From a virus (lineage: Duplodnaviria > Heunggongvirae > Uroviricota > Caudoviricetes): a stretch of DNA of 43,233 nucleotides. This document shows positions 3,362-41,949 of this stretch, in pieces. Location of the stretch: IMG/VR virus record IMGVR_UViG_2516143027_000009, one strand, 5' to 3'. Numbering within the stretch: position 1 is the first letter of the stretch; each line of letters opens with the position of its first letter. Both the position numbers and the translations under genes were made by a program. The notes below the pieces were generated by a model that saw only the letters and a program-made list of their open reading frames with translations, was not told the DNA's origin and made no database searches.

Positions 3362-3388
3362 CCCGCAAAATATTGCGGGCTTTTTTTT
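3362..3388 (+). terminator. Rho-independent terminator, plus-strand orientation, overlapping tailspike stop
   Basis: Hairpin CCCGCAAAATATTGCGGG followed by T8 on the plus strand; the minus-strand reading lacks a U-tract. Confidence 0.5.
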
Positions 3389-6300
3389 AACGTTCTTCCA
3401 GAGACTGAATCCGCTCTTTTATCTTATCCATTTCTCTGCGCTGCCATGCCGCCTCGATATAGAATAAGAGATCAGGTCTGACCCCCCATCTAGATCCTGC
3501 TGGCGTTATTTCAACGCGCTCAATGATGTCTTCCATTACCATCACTGGATTATCATCCTCATCAACAATGATGCTCCCTTCATTATCAGTCAGCGGCATT
3601 TCCCTTTGGCCAGTAATGACGTCATCATATACTGCGGGATAATCGTCATAGCAAAGAAAGGCATAGCGGCATGTTGTGCTTTCTTCTTCCATGAGTCCGT
3701 GAGAAATAAGAACATCACGAAGTTGCTGCGCGATTACACCATGATGTATCCTCGCCCCTTCTTCCCCCTTTATAGCGACAGCGTTCAGCCATTTATAAGC
3801 GATATACCTGACGTCACCCCAGGCATCCAGCAATGCTTCGTCAGGAGAGACCGGCTCTGTCTTTAATGTTCCGTCACTGGTAACCACAGGATTGGAGCCA
3901 AGATAAACTGTCGAGAACCTGTTTCCCGGACCACCAAGAGCATTTACATTATCAAGATAAGGTTTAACATCTCCGTTCTCAAAAAGATGTTCGAGTGCGT
4001 TATATACCGCGCGACGTGGAGTACTGCTTCCGGAACCATGCAACGTTATCATTGCACCATCTGCTGAAGACGTTGTTTCACCGCCGCTAACGATTAATCT
4101 CTGAGCGGTAACATCATCAGACGGTACTTTCTTCGCAATAATGGCGTAATTACCCTCAAGTTTGACTTCCGCGCGAACTTGTCCTGATGTACCTGCATGG
4201 ACAGTCAGTGACTGGACGGCAACATCATCTGTGAAATCAACGGGTACAGGAACCGTCCTCACGCCTGACGTCGACATAAAAGTAGGAAGCGTTCTGTTAG
4301 GAGTGGCTCCGTAGACAAAATCCCTTGAAACAAATTCTTCCTGTTTAATTTTCACCCTGAAACAATACAAATCAGCCGGGTGACCATCGTGAACATAAGG
4401 ATATTTTCTGTTGTTATCCCCTATGCTCCATGGGTTTAGAAAGTCTTCCCCACCGAAAATGTAGTACAGCCAGTTGTCTTTGATACAAACTGAACCAACA
4501 CCAACCGCAGAGTTAACTATTCCGCCCTGATAAATCTGATCAGTAACATTAACCCACTCTACATTATCCAGACTCCACTCATTGACGTTAACTCTGGTCA
4601 TAAATGTTCTTGGATAATTTCCTGCATAACGGTTATCAGGTTCTCCTCCTTCCCACTCACCAAATGCGCGCTCACTGCCAAAAATAATCAGCTCATCGCC
4701 AACTTTGGCAAAAGGAAGGTTTGAGTGATGAACATTATTTGGGAAGCGAAGAGAATTCCATGATGTACCTAAATCAGAGCTTCTGTGCAATGAACTACCG
4801 GGTTGAGTACTTAATGTCCCCCTGGTCGTCAGATACAGAATGCCATCATAATATTTTACACATGGCTCAGATGCATTCGCCTCATATTCTGCAGGTATGC
4901 GTCTGCGAACAAAGCTACCAGGAGAACCGAAAGCATCAGAGAAATAGAGTATCCCAAGCTCGCGTGGACCAATATCACCATTATGGTAGCCAACAGCAAA
5001 ACTGTTATCGCTAATCGTCGCAAAACTGTGAATCTCAGTAACAGGAGTGCTTCCGTCAACAAAAGAAGGAATAGTTCCAAGACTGGTTTTTCTCCATGGT
5101 GACGAGTGAAATGATGTACCAAAACTCCAGTATCTACCCTCGTTATTCTGATCCACATCCTGGGTATTTTGCGTCGTAACTGTAAAAGTATTTTTATCAA
5201 TAACAGTAGTCACCGTCATATTCCCGGTAACACCTGTAACACCAGAGTTTGAGAAGTTGACAAAATCACCAGCAAATAATCCGTGATCAGTAATGCGAAT
5301 ATAAGCGACTTGCTGATTTGCTGCTTTCGTTATACCACCATAAACGCGAAGGCTGCGACTCATTGGGCGATCCCACAACTCTGCAACCTGCAGTTTATTT
5401 CCGCTCACGGTCCGCGTCTCAATTACAGCAAAAAGGCGATTTCTGACAACCCCCATACTCATGCAGTGATAGTTAACTGTGGGATAGTTTTCATGTAAAT
5501 CTGTAAGCCATTCCGGCGTTGTCCAGGTCTTCCCGTCATCTCCTGAGCGAACCCATGCAACATGGAGGTTATTTACACCATGGCGGTCTCCAGCCATAAA
5601 AGGCGCATAGATGACATTGTCATATACAAACGTTTTATCCTGCGTCCAGGCGTTGTACCACGGTGTATCTGTAATTTTAAATAACTCTCCCTGGATAAAA
5701 TCTTCAGAAGCATAAAAAAGAGGCTGACCCGGTATTCTCTCAAATAAAAAACGAGCATTTTTAAATCGACTGACATCCGGAAGAGTTGATACTTTAAAAG
5801 TAAGCCCTAATCCGTCAATTTTATAACCTGGAGATGAGGCTTCAAGGCACGCGCTTATTGCAGTGGAATCGTCATTTATACCATCACCAACAGCTCCAAA
5901 ATCTTTGGGGCTAATAGCATCACGCATTTTATCCTGGAACGTTCGGTACACAGCCCCAGAACCATACTGAATAAACCAACCAAAACCACCAACAACCCCG
6001 GCGATTGCAGCATCGACATAATTACGCATTGAGCGATTATTTACAGCGTCCTGCTCAAATGATGGATCTGCAAGGTTAGAAATTTTGTTTTGCTTTGCAT
6101 CGTAATATTTTGCAAGCAAAGATGGTTTCATCAATGCACGTCTGAACCACCCAAAACATTGCTGGATCAGCATCGTCAGGTAGTCAAAGGCATCTTCATG
6201 CACTTCGGGGAAAAATTTTCCCTGATTGCGAAGGTCTGTCTCCTGCACTACATCAAGCACACGATCTATCGTAATTCGCCATCCAGTAGCAAGCGGAGAC

Positions 6301-6506
6301 GGAAGAACCACAGAACCGCCACTATAAGTGCCCGCCCCAGTTACCGTATAACCGGTATCCAGAACCAATTCTGTTACGTTTCCGTTCAGGTCAGACACCT
6401 GAACAACCAGGTCTGATTTTCTGAAAATTCGAAAAGTATACGGAAACGATGTCGTAACGCCGTTACCGGTGTATTCGTTGTGGTCAACTTCGGTTGAGAC
6501 CGTCAT
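3387..6506 (-). CDS. Tailspike or tail fiber protein with C-terminal intramolecular chaperone (peptidase S74-like) domain
   Basis: 1039 aa; N-terminal podovirus tail-fiber anchor-like segment (TGNGVTTSFPYTF); C-terminal ~150 aa resembles the self-cleaving chaperone domain of endosialidases and L-shaped fibers; position after the internal virion protein genes. Confidence 0.75.
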   Translation of the reverse strand: MTVSTEVDHNEYTGNGVTTSFPYTFRIFRKSDLVVQVSDLNGNVTELVLDTGYTVTGAGTYSGGSVVLPSPLATGWRITIDRVLDVVQETDLRNQGKFFPEVHEDAFDYLTMLIQQCFGWFRRALMKPSLLAKYYDAKQNKISNLADPSFEQDAVNNRSMRNYVDAAIAGVVGGFGWFIQYGSGAVYRTFQDKMRDAISPKDFGAVGDGINDDSTAISACLEASSPGYKIDGLGLTFKVSTLPDVSRFKNARFLFERIPGQPLFYASEDFIQGELFKITDTPWYNAWTQDKTFVYDNVIYAPFMAGDRHGVNNLHVAWVRSGDDGKTWTTPEWLTDLHENYPTVNYHCMSMGVVRNRLFAVIETRTVSGNKLQVAELWDRPMSRSLRVYGGITKAANQQVAYIRITDHGLFAGDFVNFSNSGVTGVTGNMTVTTVIDKNTFTVTTQNTQDVDQNNEGRYWSFGTSFHSSPWRKTSLGTIPSFVDGSTPVTEIHSFATISDNSFAVGYHNGDIGPRELGILYFSDAFGSPGSFVRRRIPAEYEANASEPCVKYYDGILYLTTRGTLSTQPGSSLHRSSDLGTSWNSLRFPNNVHHSNLPFAKVGDELIIFGSERAFGEWEGGEPDNRYAGNYPRTFMTRVNVNEWSLDNVEWVNVTDQIYQGGIVNSAVGVGSVCIKDNWLYYIFGGEDFLNPWSIGDNNRKYPYVHDGHPADLYCFRVKIKQEEFVSRDFVYGATPNRTLPTFMSTSGVRTVPVPVDFTDDVAVQSLTVHAGTSGQVRAEVKLEGNYAIIAKKVPSDDVTAQRLIVSGGETTSSADGAMITLHGSGSSTPRRAVYNALEHLFENGDVKPYLDNVNALGGPGNRFSTVYLGSNPVVTSDGTLKTEPVSPDEALLDAWGDVRYIAYKWLNAVAIKGEEGARIHHGVIAQQLRDVLISHGLMEEESTTCRYAFLCYDDYPAVYDDVITGQREMPLTDNEGSIIVDEDDNPVMVMEDIIERVEITPAGSRWGVRPDLLFYIEAAWQRREMDKIKERIQSLEER

Positions 6507-6610
6507 GTTAAATCTCCAGATAGTCGCAGCACCCGTTGCGCCGCATATCTGGTTATTCTATTACCTGGAAAACCACATATGGATAGAAAGGCTGTAAATA
6601 CGAATAGATA

Positions 6611-6625
6611 TTACCTTTCAGGTAA
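6611..6625. promoter_or_regulatory. Operator-like palindrome TTACC-TTTCA-GGTAA (copy 1)
   Basis: Same 5-5-5 palindrome as in the OR/OL regions; lies between the tailspike start and the 6702 gene. Confidence 0.5.
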
Positions 6626-6662
6626 TTTGCAAAACGTGCTGGATAGCAAACAAATTATTTGA

Positions 6663-6682
6663 TACTGTATAAATATACAGTT
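6663..6682. promoter_or_regulatory. LexA (SOS) box TACTGTATAAATATACAGTT
   Basis: Perfect CTGT-N8-ACAG with AT-rich spacer, about 20 bp upstream of the RBS and ATG of the 6702 gene. Confidence 0.7.
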
Positions 6683-6701
6683 ATTGCATGGAGAAGATAA
6701 G

Positions 6702-6959
6702 ATGCAGCAGTATCACTATCCACTGGAAGACGGATTTACCGAAAGGATTCACACGCCGGGAGGCGTCAGGTCACTGGTGGAGGGATCGCACTTGATGAAA
6801 TTACTCCGGGATCTCGATAAGGATGGATTTAATGTCGATGGCCCACTTGCCGAACTGACTGCACTGATTAACTACGTCACCAGCTCACAGATGTCTATGC
6901 AGGATCTGCAAACACATCTCGACTATTGTGCCGAACAATTACGAAAACAAACCCGGTAA
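6702..6959 (+). CDS. Small antirepressor-like protein: standalone copy of the module shared by three antirepressor fusions
   Basis: RBS GGAGAAG then ATG 6702; 85 aa; roughly 40% identity by eye to the C-terminal ~80 aa of the 8108, 9930 and 41299 gene products (shared PL..G...IH.P.GV..L.E.S.LM.LL..L..DG..V.G..AELT....Y......QTH..Y). Confidence 0.6.
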   Translation: MQQYHYPLEDGFTERIHTPGGVRSLVEGSHLMKLLRDLDKDGFNVDGPLAELTALINYVTSSQMSMQDLQTHLDYCAEQLRKQTR

Positions 6960-6981
6960 ATTTAAAGGCCGCAAGAGCGGC

Positions 6982-7710
6982 CTATCGTTTCGCTTTGTGC
7001 TCGTCCCAGCACGTTTTGCACCATGCCATTAAGCCGTCCGCATTTTGATTATTAGGGTAAAAGCTGGTCCGTTTTCTGCGGACATTACAAATTGGGCACC
7101 ACTTCATATGGCGTGTATTCTTTGGGCCATCGAGACACCTTGCACACCACTTAGTCAATCCATCTGGATTTTTTGACGATTTCCGGAATTTGTCATATGG
7201 AAGGTTTATTCTGCATCGCAAACACTGCTTGCGGCCACTTGAAACTCTGTTAGCTGATTCTTCTTTTGGCGGCGATACAGAAGGTATTCTTGCTGGCTCT
7301 GATACTGCCTGAGGTGCTTTTTTAGATGACTGAGACGATATGTCATCACCAGGGAATCTTCCATGATATGCCGGACGCGTTGACACTCCAGGTGGAAGCT
7401 CAGCTGTAAACGGCTTTGGCTGAATCAGTTGCCTCTCTTTTGCTAACTCCTGCTGTTTATAATATGTCTGGATTACCGCACTATCATAAGCAGGAGGTAC
7501 GGAAATATCAGGCGCGTTACCTCCAGTTTTTTGAAAATGAGTAGATGTGTGTTCTATCACCTGTGTACGACTAATCGTTACCTCCCCATCTTCGGTCTTT
7601 ATCGTTTTGTTCTGATTAACGACCGTACGATCAGAGATCTTAGTCTTGTTCTGGTTGATAACGTAAATAATCACCGCAACCACACCAACAACTATCCAGA
7701 AAACTTCCAT
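6982..7710 (-). CDS. Membrane-anchored protein with Pro-rich linker and tandem CxxC zinc-ribbon repeats
   Basis: N-terminal TM helix; two repeats C-x2-C...DGL..WC-x2-C; operator copy in its promoter region. Confidence 0.5.
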   Translation of the reverse strand: MEVFWIVVGVVAVIIYVINQNKTKISDRTVVNQNKTIKTEDGEVTISRTQVIEHTSTHFQKTGGNAPDISVPPAYDSAVIQTYYKQQELAKERQLIQPKPFTAELPPGVSTRPAYHGRFPGDDISSQSSKKAPQAVSEPARIPSVSPPKEESANRVSSGRKQCLRCRINLPYDKFRKSSKNPDGLTKWCARCLDGPKNTRHMKWCPICNVRRKRTSFYPNNQNADGLMAWCKTCWDEHKAKR

Positions 7711-7730: not shown

Positions 7731-7745
7731 TTACCTTAAAGGTAA
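7731..7745. promoter_or_regulatory. Operator-like palindrome TTACC-TTAAA-GGTAA (copy 2)
   Basis: Sequence match to the operator consensus; divergent region between the 6982..7710 and 8108 genes. Confidence 0.5.
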
Positions 7746-7823: not shown

Positions 7824-7838
7824 TTACCTTTGCGGTAA
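7824..7838. promoter_or_regulatory. Operator-like palindrome TTACC-TTTGC-GGTAA (copy 3)
   Basis: Sequence match to the operator consensus; upstream of the long leader of the 8108 gene. Confidence 0.5.
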
Positions 7839-7929
7839 ATTTACATCGCACTCCTCTTGTGCCATAGTAATCGGGCACTGGCAAAATCCAGTGCCGGGAT
7901 TGGCGTCCCGGGTTACTAAGTGGCGCATA

Positions 7930-7951
7930 CCACGCCAGACGTGGTTTTTTT
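7930..7951 (+). terminator. Intrinsic terminator inside the 5' leader of the BRO-domain antirepressor gene
   Basis: Hairpin CCACG-CCAGA-CGTGG followed by T7; about 150 nt upstream of the 8108 start codon. Confidence 0.45.
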
Positions 7952-8107
7952 ATGCGTTAAGCACAGCTATATCCGAATTATGGTGGGCTGGGCAGGGGTC
8001 CGAAAGGACGCCGGTACCACTTAGGCCGGTACGCCAACCTTGTCCAGTTCACCACCAGTAATTGGCGTTGCGGTGGTGATTAAAATCACTAAGTGGAGAT
8101 AACCACC

Positions 8108-8818
8108 ATGGCTAATGCTCAAACTTCCATCTTCAAATTTGAATCTGTTAACCCTATCCGTTCCATCATTATCGATGGCCAACCATGGTTTGTAGCCCAA
8201 GACGTTTGTAGTGCGCTGCGTATCCAAAACGTCACCCAAGCACTTGAAAAACTGGATGATGATGAAAGGTCTATGTTCAACATAGGGCATGAACATCGTG
8301 CAATTTTTGACAGCCGAGTAAAAGAGATCAACATCATCTCCGAGTCAGGCCTCTACACACTGATCCTCCGCTGCCGCGACGCAGTGACACCAGGCACTAT
8401 CCCCTACCGCTTTCGTAAATGGGTTACAGGTGAGGTTCTTCCTCAGATCCGCCGCACCGGAAGTTACATTAAAAACTCGCTCCCGCAGGAAGAACGCATA
8501 AAGATGGTTGCCGACCAGGTAGCCAACGCCACGGCGTCAGCAGTAATGCAGGCGATGAAGATAGAGAACAAAACCTACAGTGCCCCACTGAAGCCCGGCT
8601 ACCGTAGCCTGATTCATTCGCCGTCTGGTGTTCTCGGCCTGACGGAGAACTCACTGCTGATGAATCTGCTGAACCAGTTACAGGAAGACGGGCACGACGT
8701 ATCGGGCGCGGCGGCGGAACTGACCACCATGTTCTGCTACATCGTCGGTGTGAGCAAATGCCTGCGTGATATCCAGACCCACGCGGAGTACATCAACGAC
8801 AAGGCAGGGTTCTTCTGA
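8108..8818 (+). CDS. Antirepressor-like protein, N-terminal BRO-N domain fused to the shared C-terminal module
   Basis: N-terminal region typical of the BRO-N family (IFKFE...IDGQPWFVAQDVCSAL); RBS AAGTGGAG before ATG 8108; C-terminal 80 aa near-identical to the 9930 and 41299 products. Confidence 0.7.
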   Translation: MANAQTSIFKFESVNPIRSIIIDGQPWFVAQDVCSALRIQNVTQALEKLDDDERSMFNIGHEHRAIFDSRVKEINIISESGLYTLILRCRDAVTPGTIPYRFRKWVTGEVLPQIRRTGSYIKNSLPQEERIKMVADQVANATASAVMQAMKIENKTYSAPLKPGYRSLIHSPSGVLGLTENSLLMNLLNQLQEDGHDVSGAAAELTTMFCYIVGVSKCLRDIQTHAEYINDKAGFF

Positions 8819-9905: not shown

Positions 9906-10160
9906 GCACGTCCCTGTGCCGCCGTTCTGTCAGAAGAACCCTGCCTTGTCGTTGATGTATTCCGCGTGCGTCTGGATATCACGCAGGCATTTGCTCACAC
10001 CAACGATGTAGCAGAACATGGTGGTCAGCTCCGCCGCCGCGCCCGATACATCGTGCCCGTCTTCCTGTAACTGGTTCAGCAGATTCATCAGCAGTGAGTT
10101 CTCCGTCAGGCCGAGAACACCCGACGGCGAATGAATCAGACTGCGGTAGCCTGGCTTCAA
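9906..10160 (-). repeat. Copy B (inverted) of the ~260-bp repeat
   Basis: Reverse complement matches copies A and C, including the post-stop segment. Confidence 0.8.
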
Positions 10161-10868
10161 TGGATAACCATAACATTTTGTCTGTGTTTTAATTGCCTCA
10201 CGAAGCGCATCTAACATCTTGACTGCCACTTCATCATTCTCTGATGCAGATCCAGCAGGGAGATACTCCCCTTCAAGCGGAACCCGAGCAACAAGAGACA
10301 ACGCTTCGGCAAATTGATCTTCACCAATTTCTTTGTACGAACAGCCAAAATGAGATTTCAGTGACGACCACATGGTGATCATCGCCTTAGCCTGTTTTTC
10401 TTTTGGCAGAGACTGACCGCGACTCATGACGAGTTGTTTAATGGCTTCCTGCTGTTCAGTTGTTATTTTACCCGGCAACGCCTTTTTAGCTTTGCGTGGG
10501 TTAACCACATGGCCTTTAGTCCAGTACTCGTAGAGCACATCGTCACACTCTTCCTGATACTGGATTACCTTGTCGCGGATTTCAGGGCGGACTTTGTTAG
10601 GGCTGATGCTGTTCAACCAAGCTGCCAATTTTCGTAAAGCCATACAAATCATGGCTTGCACCCCACCGGCAGAAGGTATGGTGATTTCCACCATACCCTT
10701 CGAGAAGCGTTGAGAAATCTTCTTATGTTGAGATTTCCAGTCTAGCCCCATTCCCTCAACGATAGGTTTCATTGGGGTATACGGTTCGCCGTTGTGATTG
10801 ACAACATAAAGCTCTGCGCCGTGGAATGGCACGTTGATAGTAGATACTGCTGTTGCTATACTCGTCAT
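9930..10868 (-). CDS. ant: Antirepressor Ant-like protein (P22 Ant N-terminal-like domain plus shared C-terminal module)
   Basis: N-terminal FHGAELYVVNHNGEPYTPMKPIVEGMGLDWKSQ resembles the P22 antirepressor N-domain (from memory); located downstream of an Arc-like gene with a divergent Mnt-like gene, as in P22 immI. Confidence 0.65.
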   Translation of the reverse strand: MTSIATAVSTINVPFHGAELYVVNHNGEPYTPMKPIVEGMGLDWKSQHKKISQRFSKGMVEITIPSAGGVQAMICMALRKLAAWLNSISPNKVRPEIRDKVIQYQEECDDVLYEYWTKGHVVNPRKAKKALPGKITTEQQEAIKQLVMSRGQSLPKEKQAKAMITMWSSLKSHFGCSYKEIGEDQFAEALSLVARVPLEGEYLPAGSASENDEVAVKMLDALREAIKTQTKCYGYPLKPGYRSLIHSPSGVLGLTENSLLMNLLNQLQEDGHDVSGAAAELTTMFCYIVGVSKCLRDIQTHAEYINDKAGFF

Positions 10869-10942
10869 GTCGTTAATTCCTATACGTAGTTTTACGATAC
10901 TGAAGCCCTGACGGTCTGGCCACCGTGGGGCTTCGCTGTTTT
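10869..10942 (+). ncRNA. Candidate sar-like antisense RNA (antisense to the ant RBS and arc 3' end)
   Basis: Plus-strand promoter TTGATA-17 bp-TATACT at 10834..10862 inside the ant 5' end; hairpin 10902..10934 followed by a T-rich tract gives a predicted transcript of about 70 nt. Confidence 0.4.
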
Positions 10943-11108
10943 ATGCCACGCTATTCTTCTCACCAGTGAGTCCATACACTTTCCTCAGCTGATAGATAAT
11001 CTCTGTATTGAACTTTCGGCATTCTTTTTCGCCATTTCTTTCAATAGCTAACTTCACATCGTCCGGAAAACGAACTCGTCGTTGACACATCTCTTTTGCT
11101 TTTTGCAT
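10941..11108 (-). CDS. arc: Arc-like ribbon-helix-helix repressor
   Basis: 55 aa from ATG 11108 with RBS AAGGAG; motif RVRFPDDVKLAIERNGEKECRKFNTEIIYQL matches the Arc/Mnt RHH pattern. Confidence 0.65.
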   Translation of the reverse strand: MQKAKEMCQRRVRFPDDVKLAIERNGEKECRKFNTEIIYQLRKVYGLTGEKNSVA

Positions 11109-11228
11109 TTCATATCTCCTTAGCCCCACCGTGGGGCAAAATAATTGTCACACCGTGCGTCATTGATGTCAAGCACACGGTGAGGCATACTTCAATCATT
11201 GCAAGTAACTCAATATTTGGTGAAGAAC

Positions 11229-11660
11229 ATGAGCAGAGAAGATCCACAACTAAGGATCAGACTTCCCGTCGAAGTAAAAGAAAAAATAGAAATTTCTGCA
11301 AAAGCCAATAAGCGATCAATGAACGCTGAAATAGTACAACGTCTTGACACCAGCTTTCTGAAAGATATTCATGAAGATGACGTAATTTCTGCTTATGAAG
11401 CAAAAATCATTGCAAACAATGCACGACATGAAATATCAAATATTATTTTCAAAAGAACCTTTAATGAAATTAATAAGAAAATAACACTTGGACATACAAG
11501 TTTTTATATAAACCTTAATGACCTTGAACTGGAATCACTTGCAGATAATGATTACCAGATCATCTTTGAAAAAACATTTAATAGGCTCAATGAACTAGGT
11601 TACATCATCTGTGAAAACTCATGGGATGCAGATGGTTTTGGAATTGAAATACCTGAATAG
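11229..11660 (+). CDS. mnt: Mnt-like ribbon-helix-helix repressor with a C-terminal extension
   Basis: N-terminus MSREDPQLRIRLPVEVKEKIEISAKANKRSMNAEIVQRL closely parallels P22 Mnt; divergent from arc-ant; AT-rich. Confidence 0.65.
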   Translation: MSREDPQLRIRLPVEVKEKIEISAKANKRSMNAEIVQRLDTSFLKDIHEDDVISAYEAKIIANNARHEISNIIFKRTFNEINKKITLGHTSFYINLNDLELESLADNDYQIIFEKTFNRLNELGYIICENSWDADGFGIEIPE

Positions 11661-23011: not shown

Positions 23012-23062
23012 CTTCTTTCTCCATTAGTGGGTCTGTTACGACCCACAGGTTAATAACAGGCG

Positions 23063-27382: not shown

Positions 27383-27459
27383 GTGGCATTAGCTCAGTTG
27401 GACAGAGCAACCGCCTTCTAAGCGGTTGGTCGCAGGTTCGAATCCTGCATGCCACGCCA
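27383..27459 (+). tRNA. tRNA-Arg (anticodon UCU), phage-encoded
   Basis: Cloverleaf by eye: acceptor GTGGCAT/ATGCCAC, D-arm GCTC-AGTTGGAC-AGAGC, anticodon stem ACCGC/GCGGT with loop CTTCTAA, T-arm GCAGG-TTCGAAT-CCTGC, discriminator G and encoded CCA. Confidence 0.85.
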
Positions 27460-35060: not shown

Positions 35061-35291
35061 TCATGAGTAGAAGAAGTATGCCAGTTCTGCTTTTGAGCGC
35101 AGCCATTGTCTTGTTTTACAGGCTTTAAAAAGCCCATTCATCAATACCTTACCTGGCATTTTGCGCTTGCCTGTTAAGTGAGTCTGGATATAGTGACTCG
35201 TCGTTCCGGCTTCCTGTGCGAAGGCTTCACGCTCATCCGGAGTAAGTGCAAGCCAGTGCTTTTTGAAATCGAAATGTCCGTTATCGCTCAT
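35061..35291 (-). CDS. Cro-like HTH DNA-binding protein
   Basis: 76 aa; HTH-like segment EAFAQEAGTTSHYIQTHLTGKR; divergent from the repressor across a three-operator region; followed by a terminator and the O/P-like genes. Confidence 0.55.
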   Translation of the reverse strand: MSDNGHFDFKKHWLALTPDEREAFAQEAGTTSHYIQTHLTGKRKMPGKVLMNGLFKACKTRQWLRSKAELAYFFYS

Positions 35292-35327: not shown

Positions 35328-35390
35328 TCACCCATAAGGTAACAAAAATCAAGGATGGTTACCTATGAGGTGCATTTACCTGTTGGGTAA
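35328..35390. promoter_or_regulatory. OR-like region with three operator palindromes between Cro-like and repressor genes
   Basis: TCACC-CATAA-GGTAA (35328..35342), TTACC-TATGA-GGTGC (35359..35373), TTACC-TGTTG-GGTAA (35376..35390). Confidence 0.65.
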
Positions 35391-35445
35391 TATTGCTTTA
35401 AATTGAATCATCTACTGATTCATATATGAGGCGATTTTCCAGAAA

Positions 35446-36030
35446 ATGAAAAGTATCCAGGACGTCCGCAGGCAAAATCTCAACGACTTGATCGACCGTG
35501 AATTCAATGGTGTTCAGACGCGGATGGCAGAAAAACTTGGAACTCAGGCAAATCTGGTAAACCGCTGGGCTCTTGGCAAGAAGGTTATCGGCGACCAGGT
35601 TGCGCGAAAAATTGAAGCTGCCGCCAATAAACCCCGTAACTGGCTTGATATCGATCGCTCGCTTTCTCAGGAAGGTTTTCAGCCTGTCGGCCCAAGCGAC
35701 ATTGGTCAGCTGGCGGCTCACAACCTGGAACGCTGGATGAGCGAAAGCCGCGACCTTTCAACACAGGGAAAACTTCACCGCGCATCCGGCGTCGCCCAGG
35801 TGACAATCAGCCGCCTGTTAAACAATGAGGTCAGCGTTTCCATTTCCACCCTGGAGAATGTTGCATCCGCATTCGGGCGTCACGGATATGAACTACTGAT
35901 TCACCCGCACGACCCTGCGACTATCAACTATGACCGCTCACGCTACGCATTGTTACCCGAAACCGAGAAAGCAAAGATCGAAAGTTACATTGAATTTGTC
36001 ATCAACCAGAACGAAAAAAGCAAACAATAA
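35446..36030 (+). CDS. Immunity repressor (CI-like), dual HTH, no S24 peptidase domain
   Basis: N-terminal HTH (TQANLVNRWALGKKVIGDQVARKIEAAANKPRNWL) and a second HTH-like segment (ASGVAQVTISRLLNNEVSVSISTLENVASAFG); no Ser/Lys autocleavage motifs; flanked by operator clusters. Confidence 0.65.
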   Translation: MKSIQDVRRQNLNDLIDREFNGVQTRMAEKLGTQANLVNRWALGKKVIGDQVARKIEAAANKPRNWLDIDRSLSQEGFQPVGPSDIGQLAAHNLERWMSESRDLSTQGKLHRASGVAQVTISRLLNNEVSVSISTLENVASAFGRHGYELLIHPHDPATINYDRSRYALLPETEKAKIESYIEFVINQNEKSKQ

Positions 36031-36087: not shown

Positions 36088-36164
36088 TTACCTTATGGGT
36101 AATTTTTTTAACTCATATCTATTGACATCAAACCAAATACGCATAATCATTACCTCAACGGTAA
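36088..36164. promoter_or_regulatory. OL/PL-like region: two operator palindromes flanking a TTGACA promoter
   Basis: TTACC-TTATG-GGTAA (36088..36102); TTGACA at 36122..36127 with CATAAT about 15 bp downstream; TTACC-TCAAC-GGTAA (36150..36164). Confidence 0.6.
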
Positions 36165-41135: not shown

Positions 41136-41298
41136 GCCTGCAATCTGGCATAGTCACATCCGTACAAAGGTCGGGTGGAGAGGCGTAATACAACACCCGA
41201 AAGGGGAATATGCCCGGAGCTACTGTTTGTGCTCTAGTTGACACCCGATCACCAGCTACTAACTGGTTTTCGTAACTAAAAACAAACAGGAGGTCATC

Positions 41299-41949
41299 AT
41301 GACCAGTCAACTCATCCCCGTATTCAACGGCACTATATCCAACGAAACCGCTCTTCTCGTTAATGCCCGTGATTTACACACTTTCCTCGATGTGGGTAAG
41401 CGATTTGCTTCGTGGATTGTCGAACGAATTGCTGAATATGGTTTCGTTGAAAATCAAGACTTTATGATTATTTCCCAAGTTCGGGAAAAAATAGGCAGAG
41501 GCCGTCCTGCAAAAGACTACCACCTCACCCTCGATACAGCCAAAGAGCTGGCGATGGTCGAGCGTAATGAAAAAGGTCGTCAGGTACGACGCTACTTCAT
41601 TGAATGCGAGAAACGTTTAAGACAACAAGAAACAAAAGTGGAGAAGGTCTTGTCAGGCTTCATGCCCGCCATTATGGAGGCGATCAAGCTGGAAGACAAA
41701 AAAGAATACAGTGCCCCACTGAAGCCCGGCTACCGCAGCCTGATTCACTCGCCGTCTGGTGTTCTCGGCCTGACGGAGCACTCACTGCTGATGAATCTGC
41801 TGAACCAGTTACAGGACGACGGGCACGACGTATCGGGCGCGGCGGCGGAGCTGACCACCATGTTCTGCTACATCGTCGGTGTGAGCAAATGCCTGCGTGA
41901 TATCCAGACTCACGCGGAGTACATCAACGACAAGGCAGGGTTCTTCTGA
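41299..41949 (+). CDS. Antirepressor-like protein, AntA-type N-terminal domain fused to the shared C-terminal module
   Basis: RBS CAGGAGG; N-terminal segment NARDLHTFLDVGKRFASWIVERIAEYGFVENQDF resembles AntA/AntB-type domains (from memory); C-terminal 80 aa near-identical to the 8108 and 9930 products. Confidence 0.65.
   Translation: MTSQLIPVFNGTISNETALLVNARDLHTFLDVGKRFASWIVERIAEYGFVENQDFMIISQVREKIGRGRPAKDYHLTLDTAKELAMVERNEKGRQVRRYFIECEKRLRQQETKVEKVLSGFMPAIMEAIKLEDKKEYSAPLKPGYRSLIHSPSGVLGLTEHSLLMNLLNQLQDDGHDVSGAAAELTTMFCYIVGVSKCLRDIQTHAEYINDKAGFF

Follow-up and report, generated by a model that had tools for sequence, protein, structure and literature searches.

The closest described relative of the locus considered here is the Ant/Rep/LexA switch of the Salmonella phage SPC32H, a system that is already known, from genetics in 2013 and from structural work in 2016, and that belongs to the same phage genus, Uetakevirus. 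On SOS induction the SPC32H repressor (Rep) reportedly remains uncleaved and is inactivated by the antirepressor Ant, whose gene is said to be repressed by LexA through a site overlapping the ant promoter; a one-base change in this site reportedly makes Ant constitutive and SPC32N lytic. The Ant tetramer is said to bind the C-terminal domains of two Rep dimers, these domains reportedly carrying the Ant contacts, and thereby to dismantle the tetramer in which Rep binds DNA. The Rep–Ant complex of SPC32H has been solved (PDB 5D50), and PDB 5D4Z belongs with it to the same switch. A 2022 paper in NAR (PMC9638917) describes a Rep tetramer that binds palindromic DNA and an Ant tetramer that engages two Rep dimers, breaking up the Rep tetramer, and a review (PMC7380047) places SPC32H among the LexA-controlled antirepressor systems.

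The stretch of DNA analysed here, referred to as the window, comprises 43,233 nucleotides and represents a phiV10/epsilon15-like podophage (genus Uetakevirus) carried as a prophage in E. coli. For positions 6663–6959, the first-pass annotation had proposed that the prophage is induced by way of a LexA-controlled antirepressor, its repressor lacking an autocleavage domain; the present analysis supports this proposal, which is also the published mechanism for the orthologous SPC32H pair. We conclude that 6663–6959 is very probably the SOS-input module of this E. coli prophage, with Ant inactivating Rep.

The ant gene, its product, and its repressor

The window is collinear with phiV10, and phage TL-2011b shares ~97% identity with it over 81% of its first 25 kb. 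The ant gene is located on the plus strand at 6702–6959, from an ATG at 6702 to a stop codon ending at 6959, and encodes an 85-aa antirepressor orthologous to SPC32H Ant. It is preceded by a ribosome-binding site, GGAGAAG (6690–6696, plus strand), which is conserved in the relatives from E. coli, Salmonella, and Enterobacter. The same 258-nt CDS was called by PGAP (NCBI) in E. coli MS8345, the chromosome of which is identical here. Because PGAP uses the ATG at 6702 and the homologues are 85–86 aa in length, a longer, TTG-initiated ORF from 6684 was rejected as the start of ant.

Between ant and a convergent ORF (6982–7710, 242 aa) lies a GC-rich hairpin, AGGCCGC-AAGA-GCGGCCT (6966–6983), which is a probable bidirectional terminator. 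It was reported by the terminator search on the minus strand, with a folding energy of −14.3 kcal/mol, and it is graded as probable only because this energy is not significantly better than that of shuffled sequences (z-score −1.3). The epsilon15 record likewise has a rho-independent terminator at the equivalent place. Since the hairpin separates ant from the convergent ORF, ant is taken to form a single-gene unit, situated outside the immunity region and divergent from the tailspike gene. This synteny, with ant divergent from the tailspike gene and followed by a terminator, was found in all relatives.

The 85-aa protein is homologous over its full length to SPC32H Ant (SPC32H_020, 86 aa; 88% identity, 73/83 residues, E = 6e-57), which the SPC32H record annotates as "ant: anti-repressor protein", and its residues 2–84 align with residues 3–85 of PDB 5d50_E (E = 4e-47). 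The presumed target of Ant is Rep, a 194-aa prophage repressor encoded on the plus strand at 35446–36030 and composed of an N-terminal DNA-binding domain and an HTH_3-like C-terminal domain. Rep matches PDB 5d50_A ("Repressor") over its full length (E = 3.5e-42), and 99% of its length aligns with SPC32H "rep: repressor" at 42.7% identity (50% in the N-terminal and 40% in the C-terminal domain). Orthologues of both partners of the SPC32H switch, Ant and Rep, are thus present, and they occupy the same genomic positions as in SPC32H. With Ant 88% identical but Rep only 43% (40% in the C-terminal domain), the predicted binding of this Ant to this Rep rests on the co-occurrence of the two.

Searching with tblastn, Ant or an Ant module was found in 34–35 of 50,697 phage records, and a Rep homologue was found in 37 records that are essentially the same set. 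Among 5426 complete E. coli genomes, ant was present in 530 and rep in 539 (~10%), and Ant homologues were found across the Enterobacteriaceae. The far better conservation of Ant than of Rep between the E. coli prophage and SPC32H suggests that the specificity of Ant is loosely matched to any one Rep, and it could mean cross-talk between heteroimmune relatives. Taken together with the trans-acting antirepressors documented for Gifsy and Fels prophages (PMC3121763), this would agree with an SOS-controlled Ant acting mainly in trans, on the repressors of other resident prophages and not on its own Rep. The near-identical sets of phage records holding Ant and the Rep family, and their similar counts in E. 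coli genomes, argue against such a role, as does the interaction of the cognate SPC32H pair in PDB 5D50; cross-talk would, moreover, come on top of action in cis and not instead of it. We therefore regard a mainly trans-acting Ant as improbable, and action of Ant on its own Rep as the preferred reading.

A less probable reading concerns the function of the protein itself. A Pfam search with the 85-aa sequence returned no family, its sole match, to DUF724, being sub-threshold and dismissed on that account; Ant is assigned to phrog_450, which is labelled "unknown function", and PGAP and most phage records label it "hypothetical protein". On this basis it could be an SOS-induced accessory protein, for example a DinI-like modulator or an exclusion or toxicity factor, in which the resemblance to antirepressors is incidental. 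This is very unlikely, considering that its close homologue was crystallised with a repressor and deposited as "Anti-repressor protein", that the fused form of the Ant module (described below) is found only at the C terminus of antirepressor-type proteins, and that Ant and the Tum/DinI protein of phage 186 share no similarity. In the E. coli genomes that carry it, ant is labelled only "hypothetical protein", and its partner rep bears a generic HTH label. The ant locus of E. coli, an antirepressor locus in our reading, is therefore common and under-annotated, and is not novel.

The LexA box and promoter region of ant

A near-consensus LexA (SOS) box, TACTGTATAAATATACAGTT, is located at 6663–6682, 20 bp before the ATG of ant; the sequence quoted in the first-pass annotation was recovered exactly, upstream of the small gene. 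It matches the consensus TACTG(TA)5CAGTA at 18/20 positions, and both half-sites are intact. To rank candidate sites, an approximate heterology index was used, which was built on 18 E. coli SOS boxes and is indicative only; on this index the ant box scores 1.8, on par with the tightest chromosomal boxes, against 12.3 for the runner-up in the window. Three matches to the loose pattern CTGT-N8-ACAG were counted in the window, where 0.67 would be expected, and only the one at 6665 has an AT-rich spacer and extended half-sites. The other two matches, at 23033 and 27575, were rejected as LexA sites because of their GC-rich spacers and high approximate indices (19.9 and 12.3, respectively). With the stricter pattern TACTGTAT-N4-ATACAGT, the ant box was the sole match in the window, even when three mismatches were allowed.

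The ant–tailspike intergenic region was then compared in an alignment of nine phages spanning four host genera (E. coli, Salmonella, Enterobacter, and Klebsiella). Six of the nine have a conserved LexA box in front of ant; it occurs at the same position in phiV10, SPC32H, epsilon15, Tyrion, and BUCT554, and the box of the window aligns column for column with that of SPC32H. Across the nine phages the box, the upstream palindrome, and the ribosome-binding site are kept while the remaining sequence drifts, and judged by this alignment the box is a phylogenetic footprint. In three Klebsiella phages, ATGT replaces CTGT in the left half-site (approximate heterology index 6.6, likewise indicative only), and some members of the phage family may accordingly be under weaker LexA control. 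Over a 211-bp upstream region, SPC32H and SPC32N differ by exactly one base, which turns ATACAGT into ATAAAGT; this C-to-A change sits in the ACAG half-site of the ant LexA box and agrees with the mutation reportedly described in 2013.

The position of the palindrome in a divergent intergenic region, and the degenerate left half-site in Klebsiella, could also be read as signs of a chance AT-rich palindrome or of a regulator of the divergent tailspike gene, in which case 6663–6682 would not be a LexA site for ant. Against this, the box is unique in the window, near-consensus, and conserved while its flanks diverge; it lies 20 bp from the ATG of ant but ~160 bp from the tailspike start; and the single base that distinguishes SPC32N from SPC32H falls within it. 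We consider this reading highly improbable, and the palindrome is treated below as the LexA box of ant.

An operator had also been proposed in front of ant, and one was found: a putative Rep-type operator palindrome, ATTACCTTTCAGGTAAT, at 6610–6626 in the ant/tailspike divergent intergenic region, 54 bp further upstream than the LexA box. This palindrome is invariant across the nine phages and is a member of a TTACC-N5-GGTAA family, of which 14 sites (≤1 mismatch) were counted in the window, against 1.5 in shuffled sequences. The sites cluster between rep and the cro-like gene and, on the downstream side of rep, at the early-left (PL-like) promoter. Three of them lie at 35328–35391, between the cro-like gene (35061–35291, minus strand) and rep, in an interval whose SPC32H equivalent also holds three, and the leftward early promoter is flanked by two, at 36088 and 36150. 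Other sites precede structural, terminase, and further operons, and the motif has the same distribution in SPC32H and TL-2011b. In the epsilon15 GenBank record the palindromes are labelled "protein_bind: repressor", including one between gp19 (the ant orthologue, annotated as hypothetical) and the tailspike gene; a LexA site annotation is absent from this record, and the IHF site that it places beside the operator was not conserved in the window when the sequences were aligned.

In two promoters of the window, paired operators are spaced at exactly 62 bp, in the layout operator, 18 nt, −35, 17 nt, −10, operator. By the same geometry, a putative −10 element of the ant promoter, TATAAA (6668–6673, plus strand), would lie inside the LexA box: its offset from the upstream operator equals that in the two paired-operator promoters, and the LexA box is found where the proximal operator would be. 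This −10 is a good one, while the candidate −35 element, AGCAAA (6644–6650), is weak. Because nothing in front of ant passed the threshold of a simple sigma-70 consensus scan, this assignment is inferred from geometry. As laid out in the sequence, the ant promoter may be a standard Rep-controlled scaffold with an SOS box in place of the proximal operator.

The upstream operator was considered as a second lock on ant. It is unlikely that this operator alone would be enough to silence the gene, because it is intact in SPC32N, and yet Ant is reportedly constitutive there. Through this operator Rep probably controls the divergent tailspike promoter and perhaps ant too; the site may alternatively add Rep-dependent feedback on ant.

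Proposed switch and further copies of the Ant module

The absence of an autocleavage domain from the repressor, as claimed in the first-pass annotation, was borne out. Pfam searches with Rep returned HTH domains only and no Peptidase_S24, and a tblastn search with E. coli LexA found no S24-like region anywhere in the window, by which a hidden S24/LexA-like repressor elsewhere in it was also rejected. The architecture of Rep, a DNA-binding domain followed by an HTH-like oligomerisation domain without S24, is that of SPC32H Rep. Induction by lambda-like, RecA-stimulated repressor cleavage, with ant dispensable, is the default mechanism of lambdoid phages but can practically be dismissed here, given a Rep without S24 domain, a window without S24-like sequence, and the homology of Rep to an SPC32H repressor that is reportedly not cleaved. 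The review cited above (PMC7380047) is consistent with this view.

In the switch that we propose, host LexA bound to 6663–6682, where it would overlap the −10 element of the ant promoter, would silence the single-gene ant unit in the lysogen. Upon DNA damage, RecA-stimulated self-cleavage of LexA would free the promoter, and the 85-aa Ant would be made and would bind Rep (35446–36030), which is predicted to be unable to cleave itself. By analogy with SPC32H, the Ant tetramer would split the DNA-binding Rep tetramer into two dimers, upon which Rep would come off its TTACC-N5-GGTAA sites at the early promoters and lytic development would begin. Shown for the window itself are the sequence elements with their statistics, the orthology of Ant and Rep to the SPC32H pair and their co-occurrence, the conservation of the box among relatives, and the lack of a cleavage domain in Rep; LexA binding, SOS induction, Ant–Rep binding, and Rep disassembly in the E. 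coli prophage are inferred by analogy with the Salmonella phage.

Transfer of the SPC32H annotation would predict that SOS induction of phiV10-like prophages proceeds through LexA and Ant, and not through repressor cleavage. The prophages affected include those of O157, O103, and K1-type strains, some of them with endosialidase tailspikes, and the prediction is relevant to the induction of prophages by antibiotics and genotoxins as well as to the engineering of phiV10-type reporter phages. Induction of E. coli Uetakevirus prophages of the phiV10 species by a DNA-damaging microcin has been described in a preprint (bioRxiv 10.64898/2026.05.26.727859).

The 85-aa protein had further been described as a diverged, standalone copy of a module common to three antirepressor fusions, and this held. 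When the window was searched with Ant by tblastn, three further copies of the module were found at 40–42% identity, each at the C terminus of a larger ORF, where it makes up the last ~80 residues of the protein. In combination with domain searches, the three ORFs were identified as a Bro-N fusion (8108–8818, plus strand, from the PGAP start ATG at 8108; the ORF list starts at GTG 8093), a P22_AR_N fusion (9930–10868, minus strand), and an AntA fusion (41299–41949, plus strand). The three fused copies hardly differ from each other, and fused and free copies have 25 invariant positions in common.

Divergence of the fused module was compared with that of Rep across related phages. The two diverge in step, in what is a small sample: module and Rep identities are 95–100% and 99% in E. 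coli phages, 77 and 78% in Enterobacter phage Tyrion, and 54 and 45% in Klebsiella phages, respectively. The free Ant breaks this pattern, with identities in Salmonella phages of 88% for Ant but 43% for Rep. The parallel divergence of fused copy and Rep in this small sample suggests that the Ant module is the Rep-binding unit.

The four Ant-module genes each lie beside a different control element (LexA, isrK/C4 RNA, Mnt/Arc/sar, or sRNA-Xcc1), and among them a LexA box precedes only the standalone ant. Downstream of isrK and C4 RNAs plus two Rep-type operators lies the Bro-N fusion, and the P22_AR_N fusion is located inside a P22-like Mnt/Arc/sar cassette. The AntA fusion, preceded by an sRNA-Xcc1-like element, is found towards the distal end of the leftward block of early genes, immediately ahead of the integrase gene. 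This set of four genes with separate control elements goes beyond the accessible literature. Tentatively, and with more doubt than confidence, all four products might act on the same Rep, such that the switch would read several independent inputs via one output domain, or the Rep-controlled fusions might provide positive feedback. If so, the Rep-controlled fusions could make SOS induction irreversible, and it would be shown directly that large Ant proteins owe their choice of repressor to their variable C-terminal module.

Comparison with known antirepressor systems

The P22 Ant (immI: mnt-arc-ant with sar RNA) and the P1 c4-icd-ant cassette are antirepressor systems whose products bind phage repressors and thereby inactivate them. 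The N-terminal domains of these proteins (P22_AR_N, Bro-N, and AntA) occur in the three fusions of the window, two of which also have RNA regulators beside them: sar at the P22_AR_N fusion, and C4 with isrK at the Bro-N fusion. The 85-aa Ant, in contrast, carries none of these N-terminal domains, which sets it apart from the multi-domain Ant proteins, and it has a LexA box instead of Mnt/Arc/sar or C4.

For LexA control of ant, the first-pass annotation had named Gifsy-type and 186-type phages as comparators. The shared logic stood, whereas no sequence similarity was found to Tum or to the Gifsy-1 gene, and the right comparator is SPC32H Ant. Like Ant as proposed here, the GfoA/GftA/GfhA proteins of the Salmonella Gifsy prophages are small, are encoded outside the immunity region, bind non-cleavable repressors, and are under direct LexA control (Lemire et al. 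2011, PMC3121763). The 73-aa Gifsy-1 gene product encoded after dinI, which would be gfoA by its operon order (PMC3121763), gave no alignment with Ant at E ≤ 100, and a tblastn search with Ant found no match in Gifsy-1. The Gifsy genes form a dinI-antirepressor-irsA operon, whereas the E. coli ant stands alone between its LexA box and the probable terminator, with no dinI homologue beside it; by both homology and operon structure, Ant thus falls outside the GfoA/GftA family.

Tum of phage 186 resembles Ant in having a LexA box over its promoter (p95), a gene located outside the immunity region, and a product that inactivates a non-cleavable repressor by binding it (PMC3121763; 186 annotation), and the p95 box has a core, TACTGTATGTTTATACAGT, that matches the SPC32H ant box exactly. 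Tum differs in being 146 aa in length, in its DinI-like C-terminal half, in acting on another repressor family, and in belonging to a P2-like myovirus. No significant similarity between Ant and Tum was found by BLASTP (14/46 identical, E = 0.06 in a single comparison), nor was any match found in phage 186 by tblastn with Ant, and homology to the Tum family was accordingly not detected in either search. By these comparisons, Tum and the Gifsy antirepressors are functional analogues of Ant and not homologues.

The SPC32H Ant/Rep/LexA system remains the closest known. The two phages differ in host (E. coli and Salmonella, respectively) and in Rep, which is only 43% identical; the three multi-domain proteins that end in an Ant-like module are present in the E. 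coli prophage and absent from SPC32H. The likenesses extend to the genus Uetakevirus, the position of the LexA box, the upstream palindrome, the orientation of the gene divergent from tailspike, the two-domain, non-cleavable Rep architecture, and the operator motif TTACC-N5-GGTAA, such that every feature tested in this comparison is shared between SPC32H and the E. coli prophage.

Repressor operators and the divergence of Rep from Ant

Across the whole window, the Rep-type operator motif TTACC-N5-GGTAA was observed at 14 sites against 1.5 expected. Sites were placed at 6611, 7731, 7824, 8890, 27046, 30191/30209, 33027/33089, 34991, 35328/35355/35376 and 36088/36150, such that the motif precedes nearly all operons and extends beyond the immunity region alone. 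Operator pairs spaced at exactly 62 bp flank promoters on both sides, with a fixed promoter geometry, and the same 62-bp pairs are present in Salmonella phage SPC32H, where the Ant/Rep/LexA switch has been characterised, and in the close relative TL-2011b. This spacing fits a tetrameric repressor touching two operators.

Between the window and SPC32H, the antirepressor Ant (6702-6959) is 88% identical, whereas the prophage repressor Rep (35446-36030) is only 43% identical (50% in the N-terminal domain and 40% in the C-terminal domain); the two phages share one operator motif. Judged from these sequence comparisons, the Ant-binding surface of Rep could be conserved, and related phages could cross-induce one another.

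Antirepressor fusions and their associated RNAs

Each of the three larger ORFs that carry an Ant-like C-terminal module lies next to an RNA family match. The Bro-N fusion gene (8108-8818) is preceded on the same (+) strand by matches to the Rfam families for the Hfq-binding RNA isrK (7875-7951, 67.7 bits) and the C4 antisense RNA (7976-8059, 66 bits). Two Rep-type operators (7731-7745 and 7824-7838) are located ahead of these RNAs, and a terminator-like hairpin was found at 7929-7945. The order of RNAs and fusion gene resembles both the c4-icd-ant cassette of P1 and the isrK-anrP cassette of Gifsy-1.

A complete P22 immI-like cassette occupies 9930-11660, comprising a Mnt-like ribbon-helix-helix ORF (11199-11660, +), an Arc-like ORF (10941-11129, -), the sar antisense RNA (10870-10937, +; 44.8 bits, where the gathering score is 43) and the P22_AR_N fusion antirepressor (9930-10868, -), whose start codon is directly preceded by sar. 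In this antirepressor the C-terminus is replaced by a module like SPC32H Ant.

The AntA fusion (41299-41949, +) has a match to the sRNA-Xcc1 family directly upstream (41169-41258, +; 64.8 bits), and the two have the leftward early gene block on one side and the integrase gene on the other. At this position TL-2011b instead carries a DUF1382 gene and a methyltransferase.

The ORF convergent with ant, the tailspike and a tRNA

Convergent with ant, and sharing a terminator hairpin with it, is a 242-aa ORF (6982-7710, -) with a hydrophobic N-terminus and repeated CxxC motifs in its C-terminal region. Its match to Stc1 was weak and sub-threshold; the ORF is annotated as hypothetical by PGAP and merely as a misc_feature in TL-2011b. 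For the 1039-aa tailspike (3387-6506, -), PGAP reports an endosialidase catalytic beta-propeller domain, and the K1-capsule strains IHE3034 and APEC O18 are among those whose chromosomes match the ant locus best. On these two grounds, the phiV10-like prophage of the window may target the polysialic-acid capsule. Between the terminase and structural modules lies a tRNA-Arg (anticodon TCT; 27383-27459, +), and a tRNA-Arg is annotated at the equivalent place in SPC32H.

LexA boxes in other phages

In three related Klebsiella phages (L006, L007 and L011), the LexA box ATATGTATATATATACAGTA, about 40 bp upstream of ant, has ATGT rather than CTGT as its left half-site and an approximate heterology index of 6.6; SOS control of ant may be weaker in this branch. 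The LexA box core of the phage 186 tum promoter p95 (L012, 9043-9066), TACTGTATGTTTATACAGT, matches that of SPC32H ant at every base, yet Tum and SPC32H Ant are antirepressors without sequence kinship.
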